Of a stretch of DNA of 64,000 nt, positions 35,901-63,620 are shown piece by piece. How positions within the stretch are numbered: position 1 is the stretch's first letter; each line of letters begins with the position of its first letter. The stretch lies in NCBI GenBank assembly GCA_977020255.1, contig CDROCS010000091.1, positions 124,001-188,000 on the forward strand, read 5' to 3'. The notes below the pieces were generated by a model, which saw only the letters and a list, made by a program, of their open reading frames with translations, searched no databases and was not told where the DNA came from. A program made the translations under genes and the position numbers. The DNA is from Obrimoposthia wandeli. Its lineage: Eukaryota.

Positions 35901-38900
35901 GTGTTGATGTGTTGATGTGTTGACGTGTTGATGTGTTGATGTTTTGATGTGTTGACTTGTTGATGTGTTGAGAATTACTTGAACTGGAAATCATTTGCCT
36001 CGTTGTTCTAAAATTCTAACAGACGGAGCTTACACATATTGGTCTGCCATTTCTTCTTCTCCGATCTTTGATTTGATGAATATGTCAGAAGAGATAATTG
36101 TTACACAAGAAAGAATATTTAAGGAAAATATGAAAATTGCTGTATTTTATAATAAGTATTTTTATTTCACTTATTTTACTAAAACGTCTCATCAAAAAGT
36201 TCATGTACAGATATTTTTGTTGGGTTAGCGGTTTTAAATCATGGCCTGACTTTTCTAATTGTTTTTATCAAAAATTGTGCTCAACGTTTTCAATCAAAAG
36301 ACAGCATAAAATAAAATGAGATTTACCGCGACCAAAGGCAACACAGCCGAATTCTCAACGGATCCCATTCAACTTATTCTAAGCTGCCGGTTCAGAAGTT
36401 TAGCTGAAGAAGAGACACAGCGAAATCACCACACATTGGGCCCGATAAAGTCAGCCTTGAAAACAGAGTCGAGAATAAATCGAGTTAGCAGAACGACCGT
36501 GAGAAATGGAGACTCGCGACTGTCAGTGAATCCTTCGACAAAAAGCAAGAAGACAGCAAAAGTTCATACTGCAAAGTTATATGAAAATTGTCTTGGTGTA
36601 AAGGAAATTATGAGCGTAAATACTTTTAAGAAAACGTCGAAGGAGGCATACTGAAATGTTCCTGTGCTTATGCATCCCAAAATCATTTAAAGATTGCAAA
36701 TTATTTCCATTCTCCTTATGTATTTTTACTTTAGACTAGATCTACATTTTCCAAAGTCGAGAAGATACTTACTTTCACTTTAAACTTTTTTATGTACTTA
36801 TTATTATGAGTAAACTATTGTTTTATAATTTTATTCAAATTATTTTTATCGATTTATTTTACACAAATGAGATGCATAAAATCTCAATTAACTTTTAGGT
36901 TTAATAGAAACTGTCTGACAATTAAAAAAAAATCAATTCGTCAGCAAATTTTCATAATCATTATATTTGATGGACCGTAGACAAAAATGTTTAAAAGAAT
37001 CATTGTAAGTCTGTCATTTACATTCTCTTTTCGTGGGAGTTTAAGTGGCTATGGATAAAAGAAGGATTAAATAAATCATTAATTTTCAGCTGTTGTACAG
37101 ATTCATCAAAGTTAGTTTTACATATATTAAAACACCTTTACCAACTTTCTTGGAAAGAAGGAATGACATTTTTGCACATTTTCATAGCTATTTTGTGCTT
37201 CAACTCGACAACATTTCTTTAGATCACGAATTGTGTTGGGTTTGTATTGGTGGACCTTCGTCTCCAATTGTTTCAGACAAAACACCTAAAGGGAAGGCCC
37301 AGGAAGACTTATCGGCGGTCATTCAGAACTGAGTCCGAAATTCTCTCACAGCACAGAATTAGGTCCAGGTGCTCCGTCTTGTTTATTTGGAGTGTATTTG
37401 GTTTACTAATGATGACATAAATAATCTCTGGTGCATGACAAAAATAGGTGCTGTTGACATTTTCATCAATAGAGAGAAACATCAAATACATTCCTTTGTG
37501 AGACACTCTTATGTCCACCCACACATGCACACAGGGACTTGAATGGTGACTGATGTGTATGACTAAACATTTCTGTGCCCCTTAACCGACAATTGACACC
37601 ATCCAATCGGAATGTCGACTCATCGGATAATGTTTTCATCGTCATTTATTCTTTCCAACAAATCTTCAATATCACTTTCTCCTCGCCCACAGAAGGTCAC
37701 TCGATTTGGGAAAAATCTATACACCTCCAGTGTTCCTAAATCTTTCACGTACAATGTCCTGATAAACATTCTTTCGTAATATTTTTCATGTTTTCAAGAA
37801 AGGGGCCACAGATATCTGTAATATTGACCAAATGAGAAAAAATAAAACTTTGAACAGTTTCAAATAAATTAATATATCACACGACATTAAATAAATTTAT
37901 TATATCAATCTTTTGTAAGCATTCTGTAATGAAATTCTTTTTCTTTCAAACGATTTTGGAGCTTAATTAGTTCATGAAAATTCAAAAGAAAAACTATATG
38001 GATACCGATAATAAATAGGCTGTTATCTCATCTGTTTGAACACAAAAAATCACTAAGTGATTCCTCGAATGCAAATAGACTCAGATTTATATTGAAACAA
38101 ATTTATTGTCAGCCAATTTCAAATCAAAATTCATAAAAAAGTTAATTTTTAAATATTTGATTTTTTTTACAATTTTTGACCTACGTTTTAAAAACTTTTA
38201 TTGTTCCATTTTCTTCTATTTCACAGTATTGTATTGTCAATGCTTGTTTACACCCACGACCCAAGTTCTGGCTCTAGTAATATATTCCTTTAAAAAGTTA
38301 TAAATGTATCTCCTTAGTTCAAATGAATATTCATAATGAATATTCAGTGTAATTACGGTTAGTAGGACCATATCGATACGTTTACTGGTATCCGTTTTGA
38401 TTTTCTTCTAGAAGATTCGTAAATAAAGTTAGTGTAGTAAAACAAATCTCAAATACACACCAATATTGACATTTCAGCTTAATAAATTCCAAATTAGGCT
38501 ATATTTGACTTTCGCATTTGTTTTATGAGCGTCCTTGCCTGTCTCCAGTTGACCTACTTGAGGGCGACCGCGGGATTTCGGGGAACGCTGGATCCGACCC
38601 CGGTAAGGAGATAGCGCGCGTACATGGCCCCAGAGTGCGGTTGACCTTGAGTTGCTGCCTTCTCGAAGTGACGGAAAGCGAGGATCTGAAATGGATATTG
38701 AGCAAATTGGCAAGCTCTTGAATAAGTATCTGTTGTTAGTAAAATATAATTTGTGTTTGCCTTTTAGTTGATAACTATTTATATTTTGTCCTTTAAAGAA
38801 AGTTTAAAATTTTGTTATTTAAAGATATTAATTCTCATTACATCTAAAATGGGAACACATTTTGCGGGAAGTTTTATTACTTAATTTTAATTTGATGGAA

Positions 38901-42916: not shown

Positions 42917-43730
42917 CTGATGCGTCATTTCTGGTCTCAAATATGGGTCAAATACGCTTCATCTGAGACTACAAATACAATTACAAATATTCGGTAGGAA
43001 GCCAGGAAATTTCCATGCATAAAACATGTCTTTCGTGTAGGCGTAATCTCTTTTGATTGTTTTATTGATTAACACAACTGATTTAGAATTTTTCAGCCAG
43101 CTGACAAATTTACCAGGGGTCAATTTTGCTTCAAAAGGGTTCCCCTATCAATAAGAACTGGGATATGAAGTTTGAGAGATTCAAAGGTTCATACAGAACT
43201 GACTAGAAGATGTTCATAAGCAAAGAAGTCACAATGATGAATTGATTAGGAAATAAAGATTTGAGGGAAGACTGATATCTATGAAGATCTCTCTGAGGAA
43301 TCTCTCTATGAAGATTTCTCTTGTGGCAAGATATAACTTTCGTTTTTGAGGGTTTTGCAGTAGGTCTAAACGTGACTTAGATTTCACGAAATGAAAAGAA
43401 GGCCGTGATGTCCTCAGTGTAGGTGTTAGGTTTATGTTAGGTTTGAGAATTAAGAAATTTAAATATTTTAGTCGATTAAATACTAAAATAAAAATCCTTG
43501 AAAGCAAGGTTGAAAATTAAATTAAAATATTAATTTTAGTTTTAAAATTAAAATTAGTGGAATTTAGGGTAAAAATTAGGAGGACCACGAAGGTCGTGTA
43601 TGGTGTGAGGTGTATATAAGTTTAGAGTTAATTAACCAAAAGGGCAAAAAATTAATTAAGGAAAAGTCATTAATTTAAGAAGCTAATTAGTAACGTCAAT
43701 CAAGAGACGTTATTCAGGAAAAACTATTTT

Positions 43731-43912
43731 CAGCTGTCGATTGAGTGACAGATTCCAGTTCGCCCATTTTCAACGAGGTAAGCACATTTTCGTGCAGTAA
43801 GCTAAAATTCATTTTCAGCTGTCAATTGATTGACATTCCTTGCCTCTCCGGTATATTCAGAACTCAATAGTTAGCAGCTGTAAATTGATTGACGTTCATT
43901 GCCTCTATATAA
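43731..43912 (+). promoter_or_regulatory. Putative LTR promoter: three CAGCTG(T)nnATTGAnTGAC motifs and a TATA box
   Basis: CAGCTG at 43731, 43816 and 43875, each followed by attga(g/t)tgac; TATATAA at 43906. Confidence 0.5.
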
Positions 43913-44040
43913 GGCAGATAGGAAAAACACAAATCACAAAACATACGGGATCAACTACGAATCAACTACAGAGTCGACCGGACCACAAATCGGTAAGTAG
44001 TGATTTTGTGTTAGAGGAAAATAATTGATTTAGATAAATT

Positions 44041-44476
44041 ATTCAAAGTCAAAGTGCAAGTGATAAATCCGTGTATTCAAAGTCAAAGTGCAAGTGATAA
44101 ATCCGTGTATTCAAAGTCAAAGTGCAAGTGATAAATCCGTGTATTCAAAGTCAAAGTGCAAGTGATAAATCCGTGTATTCAAAGTCAAAGTGCAAGTGAT
44201 AAATCCGTGTATTCAAAGTCAAAGTGCAAGTGATAAATCCGTGTATTCAAAGTCAAAGTGCAAGTGATAAATCCGTGTATTCAAAGTCAAAGTGCAAGTG
44301 ATAAATCCGTGTATTCAAAGTCAAAGTGCAAGTGATAAATCCGTGTATTCAAAGTCAAAGTGCAAGTGATAAATCCGTGTATTCAAAGTCAAAGTGCAAG
44401 TGATAAATCCGTGTATTCAAAGTCAAAGTGCAAGTGATAAATCCGTGTATTCAAAGTCAAAGTGCAAGTGATAAAT
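44041..44476. repeat. 34-bp perfect tandem array, ~13 copies
   Basis: Unit attcaaagtcaaagtgcaagtgataaatccgtgt, with no spacers. Confidence 0.97.
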
Positions 44477-44565
44477 TTCGAAGACGATTCCGAAAGACCC
44501 TACGGACCCTGCATCGGACGTCCCACTAGTCGCAGTAACTGGTAAGAACACCAACTAAACCATTC

Positions 44566-44999
44566 ATTGCCCCTAGTTGGCAATTAGGATAAATTCATTG
44601 CCCCTTGTTGGCAATTAGGTTGTTTAACATATTTTAAACATATTCATTGCCCCTAGCTGGCAATTAGGATTTCCGACTCTTTAACAAAATCATTGCCCCT
44701 AGTTGGTAATTAAGATCAGCCATTTATTCATTGTCCCCAGCGACAATTAGGAATCATACCCAGACTTTTTGCCCGTAAGATTCATTGTCCCTAGCTGACA
44801 ATTAGGTTCATTCATTGTCCCTAGTTGACAATTCGGATAAATACTCATTGTCCCTAGTTGACAATTCGGTAAGACTCATTGTCCCTAGCTGACAATTCGG
44901 CTCGTTCATTGTCCATAGTTGACAATTAGGAGTAAGTTTTTATTGTCATCTTGACAATTAGGTTTTTAGGAGACCCATTGTTCACAGTGGACAATTCGG
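44566..44999. repeat. Array of 12 short inverted repeats ATTG(C/T)C-N5-7-G(G/A)CAAT
   Basis: For example attgcc-cctagtt-ggcaat, attgtc-cctagct-gacaat and attgtc-atctt-gacaat, separated by variable linkers. Confidence 0.85.
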
Positions 45000-45488
45000 G
45001 TCAAACACACAGCAGATAGAGTTAAGGAACCAAGAAACTTTATCTAGAGATAAGAAGTAGGAGCAAAGAAATTTAAGAGAGTTGCGTTATAGATTAACCA
45101 ACCTAAGTAAGAAGAATAAACCTAAAAGCTTAATCACCTGAACGTAAAATCGATACGTGGTTCATCCCCACTTCTTGTAGAGACTTACAGAAGTCCTTTA
45201 GGAATTTTATCATACTTTTTAGAAATACGTACATAAACGTATTGTTGTGTTAGTTACGTGAATTACAAATAAACAATTTCCTACATTAGAACAAGTTGTT
45301 TTTGCACCCTTCAGACTAAGAGACATCAAATCAAATACCTTCAGATAGTACAAGAGATTAGGCAACCATAACACTAAGTAGGCCACGACCAACTTTAAGA
45401 CCTGCTTCTAATCGAACTCACGTTGGGGCCCTCCGCACATTAAGAGGCTCTATACCAAGTTTCGTATAGAAACCCCAACATATTAAAG

Positions 45489-45506
45489 TGGTGCCCCGAG
45501 TGAGGA
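45489..45506 (+). promoter_or_regulatory. Primer-binding site complementary to elongator tRNA-Met 3' end
   Basis: TGGTGCCCCGAGTGAGGA is the reverse complement of TCCTCACTCGGGGCACCA, one mismatch from the vertebrate elongator tRNA-Met end as I recall it. Confidence 0.8.
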
Positions 45507-46530: not shown

Positions 46531-46903
46531 AAAAAATTGTAAAATAAGAATTGTGAAATAAGATAAAAATAATAAGTATATTGATATCGTAAACGAATAC
46601 ATAATTGATAAGACAACGGATAATAGAAAAGGACCCGCGTTTAATACTAGAAGACAAAGCCAGATTCCCAAGGAAGAGACAAATAATAATAAAGTTAACC
46701 GAATTGAACAAGTTCCCCAAACAGATAACAAAGTAACAAAAAAGACTAGAGTCGAAGAAAACGTATCAGAAAGAGACGTAAATCAATCAGCAGTTTCAAC
46801 CGATAGTTTTGATCTGACTGAGTTATTTGGTGACATAAACCCAGAAGAAATTGATAATCTTGAAGTTCAAAACCCAGAAGAAATTGAAATTGCCAATCCA
46901 GTA

Positions 46904-49900
46904 GTGATTGAAGAAGTTCAAGTAAATAATATTGAAGGAATAGTTGAAGACGATATAGTTGAAGATATGGCTCAACCAGGAGCTCAAGCAGATATTAATG
47001 CAGGAAATCATGTAGGTGACATGAATGCCGAGCAGTTGGCACAAGCTTTAAATGCGACGTTGAGACCCAATTTTTCAGGATCATTGCAGATTACAAAGTT
47101 TAAAGGAGATGAGGAAAGTATTTGTGACTTCCTCGCAGAATATTCGAGTTGTGCAGATGTTCAAGGATGGAACGATAAAGAAAAATGTGTCAGAGTACAG
47201 GCACATTTAACCGGATTAGCACTTGAAGTGTATAAACATTTGACAGAAGCAGAACGTTTAGACTGGCCAACGTTGGAAAATGCTTTTATTGGAAAATTGG
47301 TATTAGGAGATTTAGCCAAAGTAAATAAGCGACTCATGAGAGAACGGAAACAGAAACATGATGAAGGCGTGAATGAATACGCGTATGTTTTGAGAACCTT
47401 GGCCGCAAGAGCGTACCCAAGAAGAATAATGAGAAATCAGGACGGTATTCCTGTACCTCAAGAAGCACAAGCAGCGGAAAATGACCGGAACCAAAATGAA
47501 ATGGCAGAGGTTTTGTTAGATATATTTAGAGGAGGATTGAAAAAGGATATTAAAGTGTTATTAGCAGTATCGGATACAAATGATTTTGATAACGCCGTGC
47601 GAAAGGCGAGAGAGATAGAGAAAAATATAAAAAATAACGCAGCATTGGCAATCTACGCAATGACTGCAGGTGACGACGATAAGACAAAGGTCTTCGTGAA
47701 TAAAACAGAACCGAGTAATTTTCAGAATCGAAATTATGGACAAAATAAGTTTGAAAAAGTAGATGAATCCAGTAACGGAAATAGAGATAATTTCCGAAGT
47801 AGGAATCGAGATGATTCGAGAGGTAGAAATAATAGTGAGTCTTGGAACAGGAATCGAGATGATTCAAGAGGTAGAAATAATAATGATTCGTGGAATAGAA
47901 ATAGAGATGATTCCAGGAATAGATTTAATAGAGATGATTCAGGAAATCGTCAACCTTGGAGAGGAGACGATAGGAATTATAACGCCAACAGAGGAGAGCG
48001 AAGCGACTCTCGATTTGGAAATAATACAGGAAATAGTGACGGAAGATTCAATAATCGAGGAAGCGGTTTTGAATCGAATTTCCGAAGAAATGATTTTAGA
48101 GGACGCTACGATAATAGACAGAATAGTCGTCGAGTACAGTTCGAAGATGAACAAAATAAGATAGATATTCGAGGGAGAATAATGTGTTACACATGTAAAC
48201 AAATGGGTCACTATTCGAGAGATTGTACGAGAAGTAAAGAGTTCGGAGCTAACAGATTTGGAAATAATAATTTCGGTAATAATAATTTTGGAAATAATTA
48301 TAGAGGATATAATTCACCTCCGCCATGGAATAGAGGTGGTGGATATACTCCACAGCCATGGAGACTGAATAATCAGTATACAGATAGACAACAGTCACCA
48401 GGTAGATACAATAACTATGCAGATAGACAGCAAGGAGCTGAGAGATACAATAATTACGTAGGACAGCAAGGAGCTGAGAGATATAATAATTCTGGTAGAT
48501 ATAATAATAATAATGTTGACAAGACAAATAGTCGTGAGAGTTCGCCGAAACCGAAAGGAAATTTTAGTTATGTAAGCGATGACAGTGATAGGAATCGCGA
48601 AACCGAGCTGCGACGCGAAATAGATTTTGAGGATAGTGATAGTAAATTTGAACGAATGTTGGGAATAATTAAAGATTCACCACATACAAAGATGGCAAAT
48701 TCATCTACGTTGTCGAAACAAGAGAAAAGTCTACACTCAAGAGAAGAGATGAATGATTTAATGAATAGAATATTAGAAGCATATGAGACACCAATAGAGA
48801 AAACGTGTAACGCACAACCTATGACTGATCATGTGGAAGCAGCGAGAAATGCTACGAGTATGGAAGATGTAAAAAAGATAATTAGTGAAGCTAAGGAGAC
48901 GTTGAATCAACCGTTAGATGAAACGAGTGAAGCTCCAGAAGTTTTGGCCAAATTGCAAACAATTAAAGTGCACCGATTGGAAGAAGTACGTGCAGAATTG
49001 GTTAAACATAGTCATGATAACTTGGGTTACAAAGAAGTACCCCGAGGATTATTGAAAGGTTATGGTCGTTATGTACAGAGATCAAACCAAAAAGGAACGA
49101 TGAAAATTTCACTTCGATTAATTTCCGGACAGATAATACATGAAAAACTTAACGTGTATCAAACAATGAAAACGATTCGGAAAAAGTTGGCTGAGAAACT
49201 TGAAATTGATGGAATGAATATGTTGTTCCATTATAAAGGAAGATCACTAGATGATGAGGACGTACCAGTCGAGTTTGGATATCCGATAGGAAATGAATTA
49301 GAGGAAAAAATTGATGTCATCACTGTAGGACGTCAAGAGTTAGTAGATAATGAAGGATTAACCGAGATACTGAATTCTGCGTTAGAAATGATAAAAACGC
49401 CTATAGAAATTTTAGACAGTTCAAGTGAAAGCGAAGATAATGATGTAGCTGAAGCTTGGAACAAGACATCCACACCAGAACCGTACGTAACTGAATTACA
49501 AGACATGAATTTAGAAAATGAGTTGACAACTCCAGTGGTCGAGGTACCACCAGAACCAGATATAATTCCAATCAGACAAGATGAAGTCACGGATACAGCT
49601 AACCAAGTGAGACAAAACGAAACCGTAACCCAACTAGTAGGAGAAGACGAAGTCTCCGAGATTGTAGATTTGGATTCACCAATTTGGCATGCCGCATACA
49701 AAGATAGACAAGCAGAGCAAATGATGCGACAAAGTGAAGAGATTGGCCATGAAGAAGGACCAAGTCAAGAGATACAGTATAATGGTGAAACGTATGATCC
49801 AGGAGAGAATCAAACTGAGTATCAGTATTTTCGAAGAGGACCTGGAAGACCTAGAAAAGGCGAAAGTATATTACGAAATGTTCTAACAGCACCACAAACT

Positions 49901-50662
49901 GATGAAGAGAGACATCTAAGTATTGGACAGTTAGCAGCGTCATTAGAGCAGTATAGTGCAGAGAGGAATGAAGATATCAGATGTGATATGAATTCGGAAA
50001 CTCCAAGTAGTAAAGATATACTTACGGGAATTCTCAGGCAAGTGAAGCCGAAGTTGTTCAAAATGTACAGAGATGAAACAACCGATATAACAGACAATTT
50101 GACTAAAGCAGTCAGATCACAGATGTCTGCAGTAAAGAGAATGACCGCGAATAATGTATACCATGCATCCATAGATAGATTTTATGACGGTGAAGTTTTA
50201 GCGAGACTATGTGGAAACCAGACTACAAATAAAAAGTTAATTACAGCGATCACATATCTATGTTTCCAATTGACGGAACGAACGAGCCAACCTCACGAAG
50301 TCAAACAAGGAATAAATGAAGCGATGTATTTGATCGAGAATGTGTTACAGAGACGAATTGACGAAAATGGAGGTTGGGCAAAATTAAGTGACTATGCTAA
50401 AACCATTGTGGAAATGAATGAAGACGATGACGAACAATGTCATGAGAATCGTCAAAGGGAAAATAAACAATACCGTCCGAAAGAGAGAAACAATCAACCA
50501 AATATGTCCACAACAATGATGATGATGATGTTAGTAATGTTTATGGGAATGCAACAGGCATCAGGATTGATAGCATATGACTGTAGCATACCAAAGATGG
50601 GACAAAAGTATTCACTGCTTGACAGCGAAGACTGTCCAGAATCACAACCAAATCAAAACTAG
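46904..50662 (+). CDS. gag: Gag polyprotein: capsid, CCHC knuckle, ubiquitin-like, AT-hook, Bcl-2-like, env signal peptide
   Basis: ITKFKGDEESICDFLAEY...QAHLTGLA...RKQKHDEGVNEY (Ty3/Gypsy capsid) and CYTCKQMGHYSRDC (48185-48226). First in-frame ATG at 46967. Confidence 0.9.
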   Translation: MIEEVQVNNIEGIVEDDIVEDMAQPGAQADINAGNHVGDMNAEQLAQALNATLRPNFSGSLQITKFKGDEESICDFLAEYSSCADVQGWNDKEKCVRVQAHLTGLALEVYKHLTEAERLDWPTLENAFIGKLVLGDLAKVNKRLMRERKQKHDEGVNEYAYVLRTLAARAYPRRIMRNQDGIPVPQEAQAAENDRNQNEMAEVLLDIFRGGLKKDIKVLLAVSDTNDFDNAVRKAREIEKNIKNNAALAIYAMTAGDDDKTKVFVNKTEPSNFQNRNYGQNKFEKVDESSNGNRDNFRSRNRDDSRGRNNSESWNRNRDDSRGRNNNDSWNRNRDDSRNRFNRDDSGNRQPWRGDDRNYNANRGERSDSRFGNNTGNSDGRFNNRGSGFESNFRRNDFRGRYDNRQNSRRVQFEDEQNKIDIRGRIMCYTCKQMGHYSRDCTRSKEFGANRFGNNNFGNNNFGNNYRGYNSPPPWNRGGGYTPQPWRLNNQYTDRQQSPGRYNNYADRQQGAERYNNYVGQQGAERYNNSGRYNNNNVDKTNSRESSPKPKGNFSYVSDDSDRNRETELRREIDFEDSDSKFERMLGIIKDSPHTKMANSSTLSKQEKSLHSREEMNDLMNRILEAYETPIEKTCNAQPMTDHVEAARNATSMEDVKKIISEAKETLNQPLDETSEAPEVLAKLQTIKVHRLEEVRAELVKHSHDNLGYKEVPRGLLKGYGRYVQRSNQKGTMKISLRLISGQIIHEKLNVYQTMKTIRKKLAEKLEIDGMNMLFHYKGRSLDDEDVPVEFGYPIGNELEEKIDVITVGRQELVDNEGLTEILNSALEMIKTPIEILDSSSESEDNDVAEAWNKTSTPEPYVTELQDMNLENELTTPVVEVPPEPDIIPIRQDEVTDTANQVRQNETVTQLVGEDEVSEIVDLDSPIWHAAYKDRQAEQMMRQSEEIGHEEGPSQEIQYNGETYDPGENQTEYQYFRRGPGRPRKGESILRNVLTAPQTDEERHLSIGQLAASLEQYSAERNEDIRCDMNSETPSSKDILTGILRQVKPKLFKMYRDETTDITDNLTKAVRSQMSAVKRMTANNVYHASIDRFYDGEVLARLCGNQTTNKKLITAITYLCFQLTERTSQPHEVKQGINEAMYLIENVLQRRIDENGGWAKLSDYAKTIVEMNEDDDEQCHENRQRENKQYRPKERNNQPNMSTTMMMMMLVMFMGMQQASGLIAYDCSIPKMGQKYSLLDSEDCPESQPNQN
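49100..49328 (+). other. Ubiquitin/SUMO-like domain within Gag ORF
   Basis: MKISLRLISGQIIHEKLNVYQTMKTIRKKLAEKLEIDGMNMLFHYKGRSLDDEDVPVEFG follows the beta-grasp pattern. Confidence 0.65.
49990..50400 (+). other. Bcl-2-like domain within Gag ORF
   Basis: BH3-like LRQVKPKLFKMYRDETTDITDNL, BH1-like IDRFYDGEVLARL and BH2-like VLQRRIDENGGWAKL, in the expected order and spacing. Confidence 0.6.
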
Positions 50663-52370
50663 AAGTTCAAGGTGTTGAAAACTACTTTGTGTATCAGGAT
50701 GTTGATAAAGTACAAGTAGAAGTGAAAGAATGTTCAATCCATTCAAGTTATCACGAATTCTATTGGGGTCATAGAAGTTTATGTCGGAAATCACACCTAC
50801 CACACCGTACAAGGCACATAAGGTTTTGCCGAGAGATTGCGAAGACGCATTTCGAACGGGAACAATAGAGGTAGACAAGAATTACAAACCTGAAGTAAAA
50901 ATTGGAGTGAGACGATACAAAACAGTCACGAGAGTCGGACAACGATGGGCTGATGGATCTTGTGACGGAGAAACAAAAAACGTGCGTGGAACCAAAGTAT
51001 CTGAGTTAGTAATGGATGTAACTTACAAAATCGAATTAAAAACATGGACCGCCAATTTTGATAAAAAGACACAACTAATGATGAAGTATCCAGAATGTAA
51101 AATGACAGATACATCTTGTTTTACAGGTGAATCCACAATTGTGTATAACATAAATCCGAAACAATGCTCTTTAGTATTTTTGAAAGAGATTAGCTTTAAT
51201 AAAATAAAAGGATTCCTGTATAATAAAGATGGAGAAGGATTCCTGTATAATAAAGTTGGAAAAGGATTGCTAAATGAAACAAGACCAATTCCAATGACAA
51301 AGACACCTACACTGTTAATGGCAACATCAATAGAAGAAGGATTGATATTTATTAAAAAGAGAAACAAAGCGCGATGCGGAATGACTGTTAGTACCACAAA
51401 CTATCCAGGAATAGTTTTGTCTAAAGAAGCAATAGCATTGGCAGAAACCAAGCTAAAACCAAAAGATATGCAGCTACACACGTATTTTAATAATAAAATT
51501 GATTTCTATTATCATAAAGGATTGATGCAAATGGAACAGTTATATCGAATGATGATCGAAAGAGATTGCCAGCTAAACAAAGAGATCGTAAGAACAAAAT
51601 TAGCATTAGCTATTACGAATCCAGACATGGTAGCACCATTATTACCCTTGGATGAAGGAGTATTTGCTAAAACCATGGGAGAAGTATTGTATACTTACAA
51701 GTGTAATAAAGTAGAGGTACAGTTGAGGAAAACAGATCGATGTACGAGTGAATTGGCAGTAACGTATAATTTAAAAGATCTTTTTGTTGAACCAATCACG
51801 AGAATGTTACTTCCAAAAGACACACCAACTAAAGAAATCAGCTGCTCTAATATAATGGCACCTGAATATCAGATGACGAATAATCTATGGATAACGTTAC
51901 CTGATCGAAAGCCAACGACAACCCCAGCGATGATAAGAATGACGAATCTTAAAGGTAAAATGAAATTCCAAGCGGTGGAAAATATGGAGAACGCAGGATT
52001 GTACAATGAAAAAGATTTAAAAGCAGCGTGGAACGAAATAATGTTTCCAGTAAGAAGAGCCAGAGTACTTACAGAGATGGTACATCGAGCATTACCGCCA
52101 GGAGCGAGATATGCGAATTTCGATATGTTATTATCGCCAAGTAATTTCAAGGAAGCAGCACATCAGACACTTAGAAAGATGTGGGGGAAATTCCTTGTTT
52201 TAGGACAATTATTTTCGGGTATCATAGGTATTTATGTTATAATTAAATTTGTGCAGGTAATTATAGCCCAGGTGTTGTCTACGTATAGTTTATACAGGAT
52301 AACCGGAATCACCTGGCAACTTATAATTGGATGTTTTCCAGTTTTAGCAAAATATCTAATGCACCATCAT
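50504..52370 (+). CDS. env: Env: chuvirus/Monjiviricetes-like class III fusion glycoprotein (frameshifts near 50655 and 50780)
   Basis: Signal peptide followed by GLIAYDC; GEVLYTYKCNKVEVQLRKTDRCTSELAV; C-terminal hydrophobic MWGKFLVLGQLFSGIIGIYVIIKF...YSLYRITG. Confidence 0.82.
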
Positions 52371-52721
52371 CACGAGAACGAGTTGCGAGCCCTCAAGAAG
52401 GAACAACACCAAACGAGAACCATGATGAGAGAACCAAGAAACTATCGAGACGACAACGACGACGATAATGATAGTCCAGAAGTATATGCAAAGATACCAC
52501 GAAAACCAAAGATTCCGTTACCAGACAAGGAAGAAGTGGCGTTAAACCTATATCCAATGAAGGAATTGAAGGAAGAGAAGGAAAATTTCAAGAGAGGCAT
52601 CTTAATGACAAGATGGCCTAAAGTGAGCTACAGTGAAATTCCACAAGCAGAGGAAAAAGACAAAAAAGATAATTCCAGAAGAATTCTGAAATCTAGAATA
52701 TCAAATGAGAATCCAAATGCT

Positions 52722-53006
52722 CCACCACAAGTAGCAGTAACATTGAACGGAAGAGAATATCTTGCCGAAGTTGATACCGGATCAGCAGTATCAGTGCTAA
52801 GTAAAGAAATCTTGTCATCAAAAGAATTAAGAGAAGTATGTCCTAGAAAACAGACATTTGTTAACGTGAATGGTACAGATGTAGTGTCGGAAGGAACACT
52901 GAAATGTTCATTGAATATCGATGGAAGAGCATTACAGTTAAATGCTAGAATATTCACAGATTGCGGTAGTCCAGTCATGATTGGGATGGACGTAATACGA
53001 ATGTTT
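52722..53006 (+). other. Retropepsin-like aspartic protease 1
   Basis: VTLNGREYLAEVDTGSAVSVL...PVMIGMDVI. Confidence 0.85.
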
Positions 53007-53255
53007 GAAGGAATAATTATACTACCAAACAACAAGAGTTATAAGAATGACAGTTCAGTGAGAGAGATAAAAATGTTGAGAGGACCTATAGTCGAAAAGG
53101 AAAAATACACTACGTTCCGTATGGGAAGTTCGTACCCAGACAGAAAACAGGAAGCGCTAGCAAAGTCGATACTTCACTACAAAAATGTAAATTTCGGACC
53201 ACAAGATACGACGAGGAGAAAAATAACATACGTAAATCTGTCAGAAAGGGATCCC

Positions 53256-53480
53256 ATGAGATTCGAGAGAAAGAGGCGAAATATATTAGAACAGTACTAT
53301 TCAAAAGGAATGGCACGTAAAATGGCAAGATCAGGTTTAGAAATGTTAAACGCGACAAGCAGTTATGGTCATGAGATAGTAGTACGATGCGTATGGTGTA
53401 GAGTAAAGTTCAGAGAATGGGAAAAGAATGAAAACCCAATGAGACGTCATAAAAGAGATGCACCAAATTGTCCATTTCTT
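53256..53480 (+). other. BIR domain
   Basis: CVWC-x16-H-x6-C (RCVWCRVKFREWEKNENPMRRHKRDAPNCPFL), the exact canonical BIR spacing. Confidence 0.9.
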
Positions 53481-53649
53481 TTGAAACTGAAAACGTCAAA
53501 CGTACCAGAAATCCAAAAAGGAAAAGCACCCGATTTCGATTACAGTGACGGGATTCCAAAAGGAGAATCAGCTCTAATAACAGGTAGAGTAATAACGAAT
53601 AGTCGAATTGAAGATATATTCGAAGTTATGCGAGAAGTGAACGAATGTG

Positions 53650-53845
53650 ACGAACAGTATCGAGAAATAACTTTCGAACCCAAGACTTAAAAAATTGGCA
53701 AAAAGGACTTTTTGCTATAAAAAAGGATGGTAAAGACGTAATTAAATGCCACAAGTGTAAAAAAGAACGAATTATCGACAGATATACTCTTGAGCTACCT
53801 AAGAAAATTTTACATCATGAATTTTGCGAATTTTGTACTTTTAAA
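53650..53845 (+). other. Second, degenerate BIR-like / Zn-binding segment
   Basis: After a -1 shift: NWQKGLFAIKKDGKDVIKCHKCKKE...ILHHEFCEFC; spacing is non-canonical. Confidence 0.45.
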
Positions 53846-54126
53846 AACAAAATAAAGCAAAAAGAACAGAAAACAGAATGTATAATCGAATACCAAATCA
53901 CACGAAAAGAGATTTTGGCTCAACAAGACACACCGGTAGTGTCATTCGTGAGAAGATTATATCCAAAAGAAGCAGAAAGAATCAGAGAATTGGTAGAATT
54001 AAAAATAAAAACTACGCGAAACGGATACGGATCGATTTTGAATTACTGCGAGATAAAGATGACAGTACAATTGAAACAAAGAAGGAGTACATAAATGAAC
54101 TAGAATACGTACTAGAAGATCCGGAA

Positions 54127-54270
54127 TGCGCAGTTTGCATGGTCAACAAAATAGAAGTTGCCTTTCTACCATGCGGACATGTAAGAACATGTCGGAGATG
54201 TGCGAATGAAATGGTATCATGTCCGATTTGTCGAAGAATAATAGATCGACAAGTGAGAAACATTAGATTT
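54127..54270 (+). other. IAP-type RING-HC finger
   Basis: CAVCMVNKIEVAFLPCGHVRTCRRCANEMVSCPICRRII. Confidence 0.9.
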
Positions 54271-54357
54271 CACTATCCAAACATAGGAAGTGGACTGACA
54301 GAGTGTAATAATTCAATAAATACAATATACCATATGGGAAACATAAATGGAGCACAG

Positions 54358-57300
54358 CGACCAGCAGCTATCATTAGAGTAAATAATTTAAGAGTAAAAG
54401 CCTTGATTGATACAGGTGCTGTAGCTTCGATAGTAAGTGAAGACTGTTTGACAGAGGAACAGAAACGAACAATGGCAGAACCAGATGAATTCTTGGTATC
54501 AGTCAATGGAGACCCTGTAAAAGTGACGGGAATATTACCATGTACATTTATAATTGGACGTAATACGATCACTATACCAGTTAGAATCATGAAAGAATGT
54601 CCTGAACCTACAATTTTAGGAATGGATGTATTATCACAACTTAAAGGGATAAGTATTGATTTACAAGATCCAAGATTGAAGGATAGCACATCAAACAGAC
54701 AAATAAACCAAATTGATGTAATTATAGAGAATCCTATAAAAATCGGTAAAAGATCACAATTTCTCATTCAAGGTCACACATTATCAGAAGATAAAGGACC
54801 AGTTGTGTTCGAACCATCACGAGATTTCATAGAGAAATACGAATTACCAGTTGTGAGTACAGTATGCCTGATCGAAAACCACAAAATACCAGTTAGACTG
54901 ATGAATACAACCAACAATGACATCCTATTATACAGAGGAATGAGGTTGGGAAAGATAGCACAGATGGAGAATTCCACTGTATGCGCTATGAAACTCGATA
55001 AAGATACGAATGATTACGAAGAAATAGTAATCCAATCAGAAAGACTGACAACTAGAGAAAAGCAATTACTTGATCTAATACATAAATTTCCGAAAGTAAT
55101 TGCAAAAATCCATATGACATAGGAGAAACACCTGTCATAAAACATACAATACCACTGACAGAAGACAAAGTAGTCAGAAGAAGACCATATCGAGTACCAT
55201 TACAATTACAAGATGAAGTAAAAAGTCAGATTGAAGATATGTCTAAAACAGGAGTAATTAGACCGAGTTTTCGCCATTCTCAGCACCTGTGGTGTTGGTA
55301 AGAAGGATGGGAAAATGAGATTCTGTATAGATTTCAGAGAACTGAACAAGATCACAAGAAAAGATGTGTATCCATTACCTAGAATCGAAGAGATGCTCGA
55401 TAAATTGGGTAATTCAGATTATTTTACGACATTGGATTTGCAGAGTGGATACTGGCAAATCGAGATAGAGGAAGAGGATAAACACAAAACAGCCTTTTCC
55501 TGCGGAGATGGATTATACGAATGCGAAAAGATGCCATTCGGACTGACAGGAGCTCAGCAACATTTCAGCGTTGCATGAATTTTGTACTCGCATCGTGTGC
55601 AAACACGATGGTTTATATCGATGACATAATAATATTTTCAAAGAAAACGTTCGAAGAACATTTAAAAAATCTTGAAGTTGTATTTAAAAGACTGGAAAAC
55701 GCTAAATTAAAAGTTAAACCTACAAAATGCGAATGGGCTAAGAGGCGAAGTAACATTTTAGGGACATATAGTATCGAAAGAAGGCATTCGACCTGATCCA
55801 GCAAAGATCGAGAAAGTAAAAGCGCATTTAGCGCCAAAGACTGTTAAGGAGATACAGAGTTTTTAGGTCTTTTTTGCGAATTATTATAGACGATTTGTTG
55901 AACATTTTCCAGATATAGCAACACCATTGAGAAAGACGGCAGAGAGAGAAAAGATGAGAAGTTCATATGGGGAGAAGAAGCCCAACAAGCGTTCGAGCAT
56001 TTAAAAAGAAAGATTGATAAAAGCACCGATATTGCGTTTCCAGATATAAACCGACAATTCATACTTATGACAGATGCAAGTAACTATGCTGTAGGAGCAG
56101 TATTGGGACAAGAGGATGACGAAGGAAGAGAACACGTCATCGCGTATGCGAGTAGAGGATTAAACAGAGCTGAAAGAGGATACTCTGTTATCGAAAAGGA
56201 ATGTCTAGCCATAGTGTATTCATGTAGACAGTACAGACACTATTTGCTAGGACAAAAAGTATTCCTGTATACAGATCACAAACCACTACAGTTCTTGTAT
56301 AAACATAGAGATGAGAGATGAGTAGATTAAACAGATGGTTTCTAAAATTGGCCGAATTCGATCTAGAAATCCGTTATAGAACCGGAAAGTCGAATGGCAA
56401 CGCAGATTGAAATTTATCGAGATTGACAAATGTAGACGAGAAAGGAAACATAATTCCAGAAGAAGATGTAGAAACCAATGATCAAAAAGGAGAAGCAAAT
56501 CTACTGACGATTTTGCTAAAGACGGGTAAAATAGACAAAGAGATCATCAAAGAACAGAAAGAAGATGAAGAACTGAGTCTAATTAAAGAATTGTTGGTGA
56601 AAAGGAGATCTAAACCGATGAAATGACGAAAAAATACTCGATAAAAGAAGGAATCTTGTATATTGTCAATAACGTCGGAAAGATAGTAGTAGTAATTCCG
56701 AAGTCATTGAAAACAGTATGATCAGTATCACGACGGAACACTAGGAGGACATCTGTCAGGGCGAAAGACAATAGCCAGAATCAAAGAGAACATGTACCAT
56801 TGGGATGAGTATGGAAGACGACATAAAACAATGGTGTAAACAATGTAAAGTATGTTTAACCAGAAAAGACGCATGGAACTCGTACTAAAGTTCCGTTGAA
56901 ACCAATGCCACTTGTTCCTTAGGCACCAATGGAATTCACAGCGATGGATATATTAGGACCATTGAGAGAATCAAGTAAAGGGAAACAAGTACGTCATAGT
57001 ATTTACGGACTACATGACGAGATGGTAGAAGCATATCCATGCAGGGCAACCAGAAAGCTGAAACAATAGCGCAAATCTTAGTGGAAGAGATAATATTTCG
57101 ATACAGGTGCCTAGAAAGTTGTTAACGGATCAAGGAAAGAACTTCACTGGAGAAGTCATAAAAGCAGTATCGAAGATATTCGGAATTATGAAGTTACAAA
57201 CTTCACCCATATCACCCACAGACAGATGGTCTGGTAGAAAGGTTTAATAAAACTTTATGTATGATGGTACAATCCTATTGCTCAGACAAGCAAGAGGATT

Positions 57301-57790
57301 GGGATAAATATTTACCTTCATGTTTATATGCTTACAGGAATTCAGTTCGAGAGGCGACAGGTCACACACCATTCTATCTGATGCATCTCAGACAGAACAA
57401 TATGCCAATGGATCTGAATGGACCGAGCCAACATCTCAGTACCTAGAAACTGAACAATACATTGTCGTCATGAAGGAAAGATTACAAGATGCTTGGACCA
57501 AAGCCGGATTGAAGTTGAAATTCAATCAAAGAAGGTTACAAGGAACAATACGACAAAAAGCAAAACCACATGAATTTAGAGTCGGAATCAAGTGATGATA
57601 TTTTATCCAGTCATCGAACCAGGTCTATCGTTTAAACTTCATAGACCATACAATGGACCGTACAAAGTGATCAGACAACCTCAACAAATTTGAAAGTAAT
57701 CAACGAAGAGAATCGGAACAAGGAACCGATGATTGTACATGCAAATCGATGCAAATTAGTACCAAATAAAGATAATGCGTCACGATATGA
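54358..57790 (+). pseudogene. pol: Pol: protease 2, RT, RNase H, integrase (multiple 1-nt frameshifts)
   Basis: LIDTGA; RFCIDFRELN, LDLQSGYWQI, MPFGL, VYIDDII; TDASNYAVGAVL, EKECLAI, TDHKPL; HDGTLGGH/CKQC, MDILGP, TDQGKNF, YHPQTDGLVERFNKTL; GPY. Confidence 0.95.
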
Positions 57791-57989
57791 GTTAAGATCA
57801 CAGAAATCGAAATCGAACACCAATACCATTAAACTTACACGAATGGTAAGTGATCGGAACTACATAAACACGATGACGAGTGGTAGCGAGAAAAACCAGC
57901 GAGGCGGAATTGGTATGCTCAGAATGAAGTACCAAGAGGAAAAGGAAGTAATCAAACGACATCGCACCACAAGAGATATTAGAAGAAGA

Positions 57990-58546
57990 CGAAGAGATAA
58001 TAGTCGTTTTCGAAAAACACAACCAACAGATGTAGCTAAAGAAGTCATTGTGAAAGATGCACTAACAAACGAATTTCTGTGCGAACTTAGAGTGTCATAC
58101 TACGACGGAAATACATTAGTCGCTGCACTTTATCAAAATTCCAATGTGTTTACGACTGAGAAAGTGATAATCGAAATCACATTGACACCAAACATAGTTG
58201 CATGGCAGAACTATGACAGTACTGAAGCAGGACTAGCCAGTCAGGAAGAAAAAGAACCGGCCGGTGGTCACATACTGCATGGTACACCAAAAGACTCAAA
58301 CAAGAATACCACGATGTAATAATGGTATTACGTAATTCACATGGGAAAAGAGATATCATGAGAGTCCATTTAATCGACGCTGACACTGAAAAGATAATTT
58401 GTCAGATGGACACCAAATACTTTGATGGAAAGACAATTGTATGTTGTATACCAGAATCTCACCGATTAGAGACAGATCAAACGGAAGTATCTGTAAGGTT
58501 GAGCGTAATAGAAATTCCATTCGCCAACCCATCCGGAAGTGACTAA
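57990..58546 (+). CDS. Unknown post-integrase region with an internally duplicated ~60-aa unit
   Basis: VIVKDALTNEFLCELRVSYYDGNTLV versus VHLIDADTEKIICQMDTKYFDGKTIV. Confidence 0.45.
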
Positions 58547-59369
58547 CAATAAAATCATCAAAGCAACGGCAGAGTTACGCATTGACAGCGGATACCGGAA
58601 GTGGGAAGCTAAAAATAAAAAGCCACAAAGAATCAATATGATCCGAGAACAAGTGACCAACTCAATCCAGCCAAAATATCATGCTGAAATAGTATCATCC
58701 GCACCAAGTGTAATTACATCGATAAACGACGAAATTATAATTTTACTAAAAATCGATGGCCGTCATCAACTTCGAGATACGAGTAAATTTAATTAATTAT
58801 GCGAAAACACCGATATCTAAGCTGAATGTTACCTATTTTGATGGATTGTCCATCATGGGTAAATGGAAACAATTGTCATGTGCTATGGAGCACAGTTCCA
58901 AGTTGAGATACTTAAAGATAGTGTAATACCGTATCCGATTCACAAATACGAAGGAAATCAATCCAATTATTCTAACACCTTCATTAATTTCAGTTCAGAC
59001 AGACATACCAGAATACCCTTCGAGCGAGTCTAGTGAAGACAGCGAACCGGAGAGTAACGATACAGAATCAACAGAATCCGAAGATAACATAATAGAGCGA
59101 TTCGGAAGAACCATGGAGATTGAATTCGCTAAAGAGGCAGAAAAAGACAAAACATAGAATTCGTAGAAACAGAATATACAAGAAAGACGAATTAAATCTG
59201 CAGAGGAGACCGAGTCGGAAGAAGACTCAACAAGGAACAGACATCAGAGACAAAGATGAATATCTCTCAGCAATACGAATGCTGAGAGGAAAGAAACTGG
59301 CAAAACTATCTAACATCGACGAACAGATAGAAGAGATTAGAAAGATTAAAACTTGAAGAGTCAGAATTA

Positions 59370-59760
59370 ATGCCACCAATGAGTGAGATCATTCCAGGTA
59401 AGTTATACCTCGGAAATGTAGAGGATGCAACAGATGAAAGAAACTGTTGGAACAAAGGGATAACATACGTGATCAGCGTTACAATGAATCACAAATCACA
59501 ATATCAGACGAAATCAGAGCTATGACATTAAGAGTAAAAGACTCAATGGACGCTAATCTTCCTCCAGATAGTTCATTAGAAACAAACGAAATACTTCACA
59601 GAGAACTCGGAACCGAGAAAGTGTTGGTACATTGTCAGAAGGAATTTCTCGATCAGCAACTCTAGTATTAGCATATCTAATAAAGACTAGACAGATGCAG
59701 GTACTAGAAACGCTAAAATACCTACAGGAGAGAAAGAAGTATTGCAAACCCAAATCTTAA
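59370..59760 (+). pseudogene. Dual-specificity protein phosphatase (frameshifted)
   Basis: MSEIIPGKLYLGNVEDA...GITYVISV, VKDSMDANL, KVLVHCQK/GISRSATLVLAYLI; restoring one G gives HCQKGISRS. Confidence 0.85.
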
Positions 59761-59859
59761 TTTTTTGGGACAGTTGGCAATTACCAACTTCTGTTACAGA
59801 ACAAAGACAGTTGGACGACATTCCTGAGGATCAAAGGAAAGAATTCCTCCAAGCATTAT

Positions 59860-60340
59860 CATTATTGAGTTATTCTTGGCCAGGTCGACAAATACACAGA
59901 TAATGCAAAGTATTTTATATCATCAGGAGATATAGACACTGCTGGATTAAAGTTCCACAGTATCAACCGAGTAATCAACATTTGAGTCGAGCAAGAGATA
60001 ATTAGTCTGTCAAAATACTGAAGATGACACCACTCGATACATACATGCTTCCAATCGAGGAGATAAACGTGCACAACAACATCTGACGAAAGTGACTCAA
60101 ACCATCAAGCCGAAGTCACAGAAGAGCAGCGTTTATCAGAAAAAAGGTACGATGTTAGCGCCTATCATAGGTATCCTTGTTGGTAAGTACCATGGTCACA
60201 CGCCAGAAGAAGCGATGGTCTACATCAAACAGAATAGACCAGATACGGAATTCAACCCGTTACTCGTTCGAGAAATAGAAATTTTTGAAAGAGGAAGCAA
60301 CAACGAGAAAGAAATGAAACTACAACAACAGTGCCCAGCT
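59860..60340 (+). pseudogene. Second DSP-like domain, apparently lacking the catalytic Cys
   Basis: GLKFHSINRVINI and EEAMVYIKQNRPDTEFNPLLVREIEIFE match DSP N- and C-terminal patterns; the P-loop position reads VYQKKGTMLA. Confidence 0.5.
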
Positions 60341-63019
60341 TTCAATACCAAAGATTGCTAGCGATAGAAGCATTAAGTTGTCTAATGCCAAATAACAGGA
60401 GCACAGGAGACTAGGCTCTAACCACGGGAAATAGCTCCTGGTTCAACAGAAATCACAACTACACCATACAGTACCCATACTGGCACTGATAGTGCTATTA
60501 GTGTTGTTAGGACTAATTGATGTGTGGATCATCCGAAAATATCTTCGATCTATGAGAACCGACAGTAAAGATTTCAGTTTGTAAAGATAGAAAGACCAAA
60601 TGGACCAACGAACAAAGTGCTTGTGTGTATTTAGACACTTAAGAAAGGATCGAGGACAACATAGTAAATGAAGCGATATTTTACCCTAAAACAGAATGAA
60701 TCAATTCCGAATAGATTATGAAGCTGACCGACAGCACACATGACCGAATATCAACAACATTCGCCGGATGCAAGCGGAGAAAACGAAGGTTGTAAAGGAA
60801 ATACAAAAGATGCTGATACAAAAGGACCAACGTATATTCAACGGCGATGTCATCAAAACACGTGAGTATGGAAGTAAGTGATAGTGAAACAATGGAAGGA
60901 CATAAAACATGCTTGTCCGCAAAAATGAATTCGGAAAGTTGACGATACAGGTAAGCCAGTACAGTTGAGATTGGCATCGGACGAAGATGGAATCGAGGAG
61001 ATGTCAAAACAACGACAGACAACAAAACGAACCAATCAAGCAGATATCTCTCAAACGATTGATAATTAAAACCCTTTGCAAAGGTCAGTCAAGGCCCTGT
61101 ACCGTTGCACAAGGATTGATTTATGGAGTAGTAATTAGTTGGTACTACAAGCCATGCCGACCAGTAAAGCTGAAATAGTGACATTATCCGAATATAATCT
61201 ACATTTGAAATCTAGACAACACCCTAGAAATAATCAAGACATCCTACAGTAAAGCTGTAATGATCATGTGTGTAAAGGATGTCCAGGACGGATATGTATA
61301 GTTCCAGCGACCAAAATGAAAACACTTAATAGACATTATGGAATTGATGTTGTCACATGTGAAGACTACACATTTGGACAAACTAAAATAGTACTTCTCA
61401 GTGACATCAGCAAAATGCACACAAAATTTAAAATATTAACCATCAAGGAAGTAAAGGAATACCAGCAGTACGTTATGGTATTCTAGAATTGAATTAATCA
61501 ATACTGGCACTGATCATTGGATTTATAATATTAATACACTCATCTTGTTTTGTTGTACAAAGATAGAGTCGAGATCAAAAGAAACGTCATGATCTCATAA
61601 GACGAACAGTCAAATGAACTTACAAAAATTCAACACAATTATACCAAGACCACCATTTCTAGATGAACCAGCACCAGAGTACCAGCCAACGATATGAACA
61701 TATTGAGGAAAGACCGTACTATATGAGAGTAATTTGACTTGTTCATTGAAGTTCCTGAGTTTGGAATCGAACGATCATAGGAATCATGCTGATCGTACAA
61801 ATCCACCCACCTACCAAGGCTAGATTATGAGATCATGATCAGTAAATGGAGACAAGACGTAATACGGGCAGTATACATACAGAAATTCCCTACTAAAAAC
61901 AAATCACGTGTAGACATTTCATCTACAGACGTCAGCAACTGACAATATCGATCAGAAATTGCTATGTCATCCGACAAGGTCAGAATAAAATCGACCAAAA
62001 TACGCGATTACAATTTAATATTATTGTGACATCATGAAAGAGTGTGCCTACGGATAACAATATCAAAGGAAGCGGATTATCAAAGTATCCGAACAAAGTC
62101 ATTAATATTGCCCTAGAGATGAGCGCATCTGGAAAGAGTGTCGACAGGATTATGATCACAGGTAGACGACGTAAAGCCGTATAGATTCCGTTAGGATATT
62201 TTTCAGATTGCTAGAAACCGACAGCGTGACAGTAATGTGTCCCAGCAGATGGCGGAATCAGATTCGAAATCAAAGCCAAATGTTGAGAACACCACATTTT
62301 AACACAGAATGTCTGTGTAATCAGATTGCCAATAATTCTACAGAGACCTCGATATAATCATGATAATAACAGGTGAAATATTCTACATAACTCTAAGATA
62401 CCAGAACCGTCGATTTCGTAGATACAGTATAAGTATCAAACCCAGAAAAATCATTCCCAAAGACCAATCTGTGAAAGAAGGCAAAAGTAAGCGAAAGTAG
62501 AAACGACATTCGAAACCGACAGTGAAAAGTAAAGAAACAAAGGAACCAAACGAAGAAAAAGGTCAATTCCAGAACCAAAGTACAATTATTAAGAGGACAA
62601 GGTAGAGAACGATCCACTAGATCCCAAACATCATTTCCAATCCAAAATAATAATACCTGTTCCATCAGAAACAAAACACCCCATCCCGAATTTTTAGAAA
62701 ATCGGACATAATACATGAAACCGGTAAAACCCATGGAAATGTCATTCGAACCAACAAACATAGGAAATGAAGTATGATTATAAAGCATCAGACAGCGGAA
62801 TAACAGCGGTCAATGCCCTAGTGGAATAGCCGTAGTGTCAACAGCAGTGTAGTTCTATTGACAATCGTGTGCGTAAAAGGCAATCAAGTATGCCCAGAAT
62901 ACGACGAAAATGCGAAAGATTGCGATGCTGTGACACACCCATCATGGAGAGTAGAATTGCGACCCTTACCTCCGCCTCCATCAAGATATGATAAGGTCAG
63001 AGGGGGTTGTAGATAAATT

Positions 63020-63280
63020 AGTGTGTGAAATATGTAAGAAATATCTAGAAGTGATTGTACAAATAGTAGAAATATATAAAACTCATGTAGAAATTAATCA
63101 TCATCATGTATTTAGAATGTCGAAAGAGATACTTATGTTTGAAGATCTAACCGAACGAAGAACAAGACCCGAAACCTGCAACCATTTACACCACGAGGAA
63201 TGTTTATCGACATGGATCCAGAACTTATGAACAGTTCAGGACATTCAACATACTTGTTGCCCTGTCTGAAGACAGAATTC
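63020..63280 (+). pseudogene. RING-H2-like finger remnant
   Basis: CEIC...CNHLHHEECLSTWIQ...CCPV*RQ, with in-frame stops. Confidence 0.5.
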
Positions 63281-63448
63281 ATAAGATTCATCATGTTAGA
63301 ACCAACCAAGAGGATGTATTCTGTTTGGAGAATTTAGGAGAATCTTGGTGTTATTACTGTTTGTCAGATCGGCAAAATCAGACCACTTTTGTAAACATCA
63401 CACAACCACCAGTCCTCAATCAACCCAAATTTAGCATCAACCCTCGTA

Positions 63449-63620
63449 ATGTCACGGAAATGTTCCATCTGCTACGAAAAGGAGCATCGTGGACTTCTAC
63501 CAAGCCCAACAACTGCGACCACCTCTTCCGTCAGATGCCTCGAGACGTGGATCCCCATTGCCAACAGCAACAGCCCCTCGACTTCCCAACCTGCCCGATG
63601 TGCAGGCAACCTTCTCAGTA
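63449..63620 (+). pseudogene. RING-HC finger (frameshifted)
   Basis: CSICYEKEHRGLLPS/PNNCDHLF/VRCLETW/FPTCPMCRQ across alternating frames. Confidence 0.65.

Follow-up and report, generated by a model that had tools for sequence, protein, structure and literature searches.

A giant Burro-like Ty3/gypsy element with a chuvirus-like env in frame between gag and pol, and a polyprotein predicted to thread the endoplasmic reticulum membrane once

The 64,000-nucleotide stretch analyzed here (hereafter the window; contig CDROCS010000091.1 of assembly GCA_977020255.1, positions 124,001 to 188,000) contains a giant long terminal repeat (LTR) element of the Ty3/gypsy type, in which the gene for a chuvirus-like fusion glycoprotein (env) lies between gag and pol. 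We consider it probable that this is a Burro-like element whose env is in frame with both neighbors, and that its single polyprotein is predicted to thread the endoplasmic reticulum (ER) membrane once. The gene order has already been published, and the model of an internal signal followed by a single membrane pass is a small addition to it. The present analysis also adds copy-level evidence that the frame is fused, and that strong selection acts on the env sequence, in a family that was active very recently.

The Frame from gag to Protease 1 Is Open in Natural Copies

In the window, a frame of 1,366 codons (46,562-50,662) encodes a capsid-like region, a CCHC zinc knuckle, a ubiquitin-like domain, a possible BCL2-like domain, and a signal-like segment. 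It ends with MSTTMMMMMLVMFMGMQQASG/LIAYDC (ATG at 50,504; LIAYDC from 50,567) and the first 47 positions of the PF24664 profile. A stop-free frame of 971 codons (50,775-53,690) carries the remainder of env (PF24664, E 1.8e-79), a hydrophobic segment, aspartic protease 1, and a BIR domain. The two frames are not continuous in the window copy, where env is interrupted at about 50,660-50,775.

The genome of origin (1.35 Gb) was searched at the DNA level with a 2.4-kb query, and the best 40 of 5,270 candidates were scored; these 40, the window included, matched the full query at 98-100%, which puts the family at 40 copies or more, with 98-99% identity across env. Open frames were counted in 10 kb around each of the 39 best-matching copies, with the window excluded. 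The passage from the Gag side to the signal segment, and that from the signal to the start of env, were open in 39/39 copies. The stretch corresponding to the break of the window was open in 36/39 other copies, the interval from the middle of env to the transmembrane (TM) region in 37/39, and that from the TM region to protease 1 in 38/39; thirty-three of the 39 copies were uninterrupted from upstream of the signal to protease 1. Over longer distances, 18/39 were open from the zinc knuckle to protease 1 and 15/39 from env to the reverse transcriptase (RT). Because these copies were picked by their likeness to the window, the counts describe one young subfamily.

Among 153 frame-changing sites, 120 were confined to a single copy, and 29 of the 121 single-base frame changes fell in homopolymer runs of at least 5, versus 50 of 1,000 random background positions. 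Such scattered, private, and homopolymer-enriched breaks point to assembly errors plus decay after insertion, and not to programmed stops. A programmed frameshift or a real stop at the gag/env or env/pol junction was considered and rejected, as these junctions were open in 39/39 and 38/39 copies, respectively.

It is thus confirmed that the continuity from gag to protease 1 is not due to chance and is carried by other natural copies. An earlier note, made from the letters of the window, had placed the signal-like segment and the LIAYDC start in the Gag frame and had the env frame running through its TM region into protease 1 without a stop; both statements hold in the 1,366-codon and 971-codon frames and in the copies, with the window copy itself broken within env.

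Env Is a Chuvirus-Like Class III Fusogen under Purifying Selection

The natural env of one copy matched PF24664 (Monjiviricetes_fusion) with an E-value of 6.3e-94. A monomer model computed by AlphaFold2 from a 118-sequence alignment reached a mean predicted local distance difference test score (pLDDT) of 91. Chu-like virus glycoproteins were the top Foldseek matches among viral models (E 2e-44, about 20% identity), and herpesvirus gB was the top match among solved structures (E 3e-13, template modeling score about 0.4). Judged by its profile match and modeled fold, Env is a chuvirus-like class III fusogen, which agrees with the identity given in the earlier note. N-glycosylation sequons (one in the ectodomain part of the second frame of the window, six downstream) were uninformative.

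A total of 1,379 env relatives were found at E up to 0.001 among 1.84 billion representatives. In 14 long relatives that were scanned, the same chain contained a protease after env in nine, RT in five, and a Gag motif before env in four, and one relative chain had the order CCHC-env-protease (PR)-RT-RNase H (RH)-integrase (IN). Both env junctions were in frame and stop-free across relatives of 29-43% identity. The same chain order in relatives, together with the open junctions across copies, supports the single in-frame gag-env-pol polyprotein that the earlier note had put forward.

The relatives were also placed in a quick tree of 34 rows, selected by their similarity to the query and rooted at the midpoint only. 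In this tree, 14 polyprotein-embedded envs fell on one side of a branch with 99% support in the Shimodaira-Hasegawa-like approximate likelihood ratio test (SH-aLRT), and the 20 others fell opposite. The identity between the embedded env and free-standing relatives was about 20-27%. A recent capture from a chuvirus is not favored, given this level of identity and the separate clustering of the embedded envs.

Selection was assessed from single-base codon variants common to 2-36 copies; the copies are related, and the events behind these counts are not independent. The env ectodomain showed 6 nonsynonymous versus 39 synonymous common variants (omega about 0.04). The corresponding counts were 1/5 for the signal and env start, 1/5 for the TM region, 0/15 for protease 1, 0/14 for protease 2, and 16/19 for the capsid, and a conserved region of about 150 residues between PR and RT showed 1 nonsynonymous and 21 synonymous variants. 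The env sequence is clearly constrained beyond mere frame-keeping. Such purifying selection implies that env is needed; it is not evidence that particles infect cells.

Predicted Membrane Topology and Expression of the Polyprotein

A hydrophobic core precedes the conserved [YF]DC start in all 17 proteins examined (11-residue mean 2.15-3.42). In three of 13 long relatives, Met is absent from the 74-97 residues upstream of the mature start, the last ten residues aside, and the signal of these relatives therefore cannot derive from an adjacent start codon. No pyrimidine-rich acceptor-like AG was found in 50,201-50,520. The topology was evaluated by Kyte-Doolittle hydropathy in 19-residue windows. 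The maxima after the ectodomain were 2.32 for a first helix and 1.26 for a second segment, which reaches 1.6 in just 1/9 embedded and 10/102 other relatives. The Env model has a helix at residues 545-600, then two short helices. The simplest reading of the hydropathy and the model is a chain predicted to run from the cytosol (Gag) to the lumen (Env) and back to the cytosol (Pol) with one TM pass. A return of Pol to the cytosol, which the earlier note had expected of the polyprotein, is what the one clear TM helix predicts.

Under this model, Gag and the accessory domains would be synthesized in the cytosol, and the internal signal (50,504-50,566) would direct Env into the ER lumen, with signal peptidase cutting before LIAYDC. 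A stop-transfer at the helix located at about 52,212-52,268 would let the proteases, RT, and integrase emerge on the cytosolic side, where the element's own proteases may free the enzymes. Env would trimerize and provide the particle with a membrane envelope for cell-to-cell spread. Processing of this kind would be the polyprotein strategy of flaviviruses and hepatitis C virus; at the core-E1 junction of hepatitis C virus, likewise, the capsid-side protein ends in the signal peptide of the envelope protein, which is cut by signal peptidase (PMC5402940, available text), although this virus is unrelated and serves as an analogy only. If confirmed, the model would describe a reverse-transcribing element that uses ER-threaded polyprotein processing, and its topology would bear on the suggestion, made in the available text of PMC6431247, that Burro elements are true planarian proviruses.

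A more far-reaching version, which we offer tentatively and hold to be rather doubtful, is that of an active enveloped flatworm retrovirus expressed in a flavivirus-like manner. The cleaved env signal would then be the membrane tail-anchor of the block formed by Gag, the ubiquitin-like (UBL) domain, and the BCL2-like domain (and thus also a BCL-2 tail anchor), Gag, Env, and Pol would be made at 1:1:1, the two proteases of the element would release its IAP module, and the chain would re-enter the membrane after the integrase.

Several observations weigh against the single-pass polyprotein of a Burro-like element. The frame was open from the capsid to RNase H in just 2/38 copies, and the weakest interval was that from BIR to RING, open in 23/37 copies. 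The signal of the window family is Met-rich and moderately hydrophobic (19-residue mean 1.45), which makes an internal start possible in this family, and two weak acceptor-like AG sites occur between the TM region and protease 1. The second hydrophobic segment, which is conserved, may itself span the membrane. The dUTPase-like domain of Burro was not found in the conserved PR-RT region by Pfam and PDB sequence searches, whereas the published call used HHpred, and the BCL2-like domain was not firmly detected (Pfam Bcl-2 E 0.055 here and E 0.00096 in one relative).

The Met content of the signal bears on the possibility that a separate subgenomic RNA, or initiation at the Met-rich site at 50,504, yields most of the Env (or Pol); the signal would then be an ordinary N-terminal one, with no need for a full-length polyprotein to pass through the membrane. 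In the window copy, the 21 residues of the signal include eight Met codons, a Met is present within 11-27 residues of the mature start in 10/13 long relatives, and the weak acceptor-like sites 5' of protease 1 are compatible with a separate RNA, for which the env of insect errantiviruses, as a rule expressed from a spliced RNA, offers a precedent. However, the region upstream of the signal lacks such an acceptor-like site, the nearby Met is missing in the other three of the 13 relatives, and in-frame junctions that stay stop-free at 29-43% identity are not needed by separate transcripts. We thus regard this mode of expression as unlikely. Less probable again is a two-pass hairpin of Env, which would leave Pol of the full chain in the lumen and derive cytosolic Pol from chains that skip a weak internal signal. 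The signal is indeed weak in the window family, the conserved second segment has a median of 1.43 in polyprotein-embedded envs, and some gB-type envs have two TM domains, described in the available text of PMC13524379 as flanking the ectodomain. Yet this segment stays below 1.6 in 8/9 embedded and 92/102 other relatives, it has a high hydrophobic moment (about 1.0), contains Pro, Gln, and Lys, and is modeled as two short helices, and recent transposition requires RT and integrase in the cytosol.

It could also be argued that env does nothing for the element and is either carried along passively or was inserted recently from a chuvirus; the downstream pol would force it to stay in frame anyway. 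This is largely refuted by the amino acid constraint on env, which equals that on other domains, and the 14 embedded envs behind the 99% SH-aLRT branch, at about 20-27% identity, argue for an old association; we give this explanation hardly any weight.

Comparison with Burro and Other Known Elements

The earlier note had such env genes normally lying 3' of pol as separate ORFs; that a gag-env-pol arrangement lacks precedent is not supported: an in-frame env between gag and pol was described for the planarian Burro elements in 2019 (PMC6431247), and GAG-ENV-POL elements with a gB-type env in flatworms, nematodes, and bryozoans were reported in a 2026 survey (PMC13524379), which cites Sacco et al. 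2022 for them. According to the available text of PMC6431247, Burro/GYPSM1 has one huge open reading frame (ORF) with Gag, Ubi2/SUMO-like, BCL2-like, env, PR, RT, RH, and IN, in addition to a BIR domain, and the Burro env matches mononegavirus glycoproteins. A BIR and RING module is present in Burro1 (PMC13465017, available text).

The element described here shares with Burro the one-frame env between gag and pol, an N-terminal Gag with CCHC, the BIR module, the giant size, and probably a flatworm host (PMC6431247), as well as a Ubi2/SUMO-like domain (before the possible BCL2-like region), for which the Pfam and PDB matches are weak but consistent. Unlike Burro, it has one CCHC knuckle instead of two or three, and its length is about 24 kb versus up to 30 kb or more (PMC6431247). 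It also differs by two intact-looking proteases that flank BIR-RING, and by two phosphatase stretches and four hydrophobic segments after the integrase. MATH, ankyrin, and dUTPase gave no Pfam match in the element. For the BCL2-like region, a PDB search with a 5-sequence profile returned nothing relevant, and a single-sequence model (pLDDT 42.5) was not used. The Burro-like assignment follows from the shared layout and most of the tested features, and it is well supported that the element works like Burro and is a new element of the published layout. The signal peptide and topology are not discussed in the section of PMC6431247 on Burro, and an internal-signal topology for Burro-type elements was not found stated in the literature searched, with subscription papers and figures outside that coverage.

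Nine flatworm elements are listed in PMC13524379, six of them from Schmidtea mediterranea, where copy numbers reach 215. Our element resembles these GAG-ENV-POL errantiviruses in its gene order and in its HSV/gB-type ENV class. The survey treats ORF order; the terms "fused" and "single ORF" have no occurrence in its available text, and single-chain processing is not described there. A chuvirus-type glycoprotein is likewise found in an LTR element in Anakin, a BEL/Pao element of mosquitoes (PMC7642597, available text), but its pol differs from the gypsy-type pol found here. Atlas virus, a belpaovirus, likewise has env in a single polyprotein (PMC9094657, available text). However, it is a BEL/Pao element with the order Gag-Pol-Env and a class II, C-terminal env, which requires no return to the cytosol, whereas env is internal and pol is gypsy-type here. 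The available portions of PMC12440569, PMC10084718, and PMC8532177 leave our reading unaltered.

Architecture and Recent Transposition of the Element

The features of the element in the window are listed below; all are on the forward (+) strand.

43435..45480 (+): 5' LTR with TGTT...AACA termini, about 2.05 kb; end motifs agree with the LTRs of other copies
45489..45506 (+): primer-binding site that pairs with the 3' end of host tRNA-Met(CAT)
46967..48250 (+): Gag from its first ATG, with a capsid-like region and a single CCHC zinc knuckle (Retrotrans_gag E 0.0066, below the Pfam cut-off; zf-CCHC E 1e-5)
49070..49336 (+): ubiquitin/SUMO-like domain (Pfam ubiquitin E 0.0038, below cut-off; PDB matches are ubiquitin, ISG15, SUMO, and NEDD8)
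49985..50422 (+): probable BCL-2-like helical domain (Pfam Bcl-2 E 0.055; weak)
50504..50566 (+): signal peptide predicted for env, internal and read in the Gag frame; hydrophobic core and small residues before the conserved x-[YF]-D-C start
50567..52178 (+): class III (Monjiviricetes/gB-type) fusion glycoprotein ectodomain, from PF24664, model, and Foldseek; broken at ~50,660-50,775 in the window copy
52179..52370 (+): membrane region; strong TM helix at ~52,212-52,268, then a weaker, likely amphipathic segment at ~52,314-52,370
52731..53000 (+): aspartic protease 1 (DTG motif), env frame (gag-asp_proteas E 6.9e-6)
53310..53480 (+): BIR domain (PF00653 E 2.6e-9)
54118..54249 (+): RING finger, forming with BIR an IAP-like module (PF13920 E 1.5e-12)
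54370..54642 (+): aspartic protease 2 (DTG motif) (gag-asp_proteas E 2.9e-8, RVP E 1.1e-6)
55258..57600 (+): RT, RNase H, and integrase (RVT_1, RT_RNaseH, and rve_3 pieces); many frameshifts in the window copy
57600..62990 (approximate) (+): C-terminal polyprotein extension of other copies, with two dual-specificity-phosphatase stretches and four hydrophobic segments; fragmented in the window

Across natural copies, a single frame has the order Gag-UBL-(BCL2-like)-signal-Env-TM-PR1-BIR-RING-PR2-RT-RH-IN, whereas the window copy carries the part from RING onward in fragments. The order PR-RT-RH-IN is that of Ty3/gypsy (Metaviridae-type) elements, and the integrase domains are intact in a different copy. 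Pfam families associated with BEL/Pao, such as DUF5641, were absent from the ORFs of the window and from the downstream frame. In four of six copies traced outward, LTR pairs of 2.1-2.4 kb that are 98-99.9% identical enclose elements of 23.6-24.7 kb; the remaining two were nested or without a clear LTR pair. Target duplications of 4 bp flank the element in 4/4 copies read, with TGTT...AACA termini, and the complement of the primer site was found at 55 genome positions, versus 0 for a control. The element is a recently transposed Ty3/gypsy LTR family with env between gag and pol. Seven tRNA-Met genes were found in the one locus scanned; they form a tandem array with a spacing of about 284 bp and are the likely source of the primer tRNA.

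The frame runs on past the integrase for 2,182 codons, counted from roughly where RNase H ends, in two of six downstream stretches. The polyprotein comprises about 5,350 codons, summed from two separately read stretches, and the longest open frame around any env match is 5,301 amino acids. Its C-terminus reads PPIKI in 4/6 stretches and PSIKI in one. A dual-specificity-phosphatase (DSPc) piece lies at 59,572-59,757 of the window; elsewhere, the extension matches DSPc with E 1.6e-40 in two stretches.

The DTG motifs are intact in both aspartic proteases that flank BIR-RING (52,731-54,642), both of which are under purifying selection, and relatives have one to four protease stretches per chain. 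Another 135 open codons precede the first ATG in the Gag frame (46,562-46,966), and a non-ATG start or an N-terminal extension is possible. After the polyprotein, a Cys-rich ORF of its own, about 229 codons long (~63,100-63,750 in the window; 6672-7361 in stretch L045) has no Pfam match, and more RING-like Cys patterns occur downstream, beyond the window end (stretch L040).

The interior of the LTR contains a 34-bp tandem array (44,040-44,477) and a second, degenerate array (44,560-45,000), and its 5' part is just about 70% identical between some copies. Two LTR-like copies past the window end, 89% and 95% identical to the 5' LTR of the window, suggest tandem or nested elements. Between 56,500 and 64,000, the window copy has 91-93% identity to other copies, versus 98% over gag-env, with many frameshifts; this part is either a low-quality stretch or a recombinant copy.

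Host Genome and Other Observations in the Window

The host genome was examined through COX1, for which eight full-length matches had similar scores. Translation was best under genetic code 9 (437.7 bits, versus 424 for code 5 and 421 for code 4), and conserved Asn sites are encoded by AAA. Code 9 is common to flatworms and echinoderms, and the COX1 result does not single out triclads. Taken together with the Burro-like layout, it indicates that the host is likely a flatworm. The assembly also carries bacterial contigs; numerous bacterial oxidase genes and a single further animal-type COX1 show that contaminant or prey DNA is included.

Other repeats in the window are long satellite arrays with 8-bp and 5/10-bp units, at 34,118-36,015 and 21,300-22,100. 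A 192-codon ORF at 6,533-7,111 (- strand), which we take to resemble a Polinton/Maverick capsid-type protein, is located near long inverted repeats (4,830-5,106 and 15,827-16,104).

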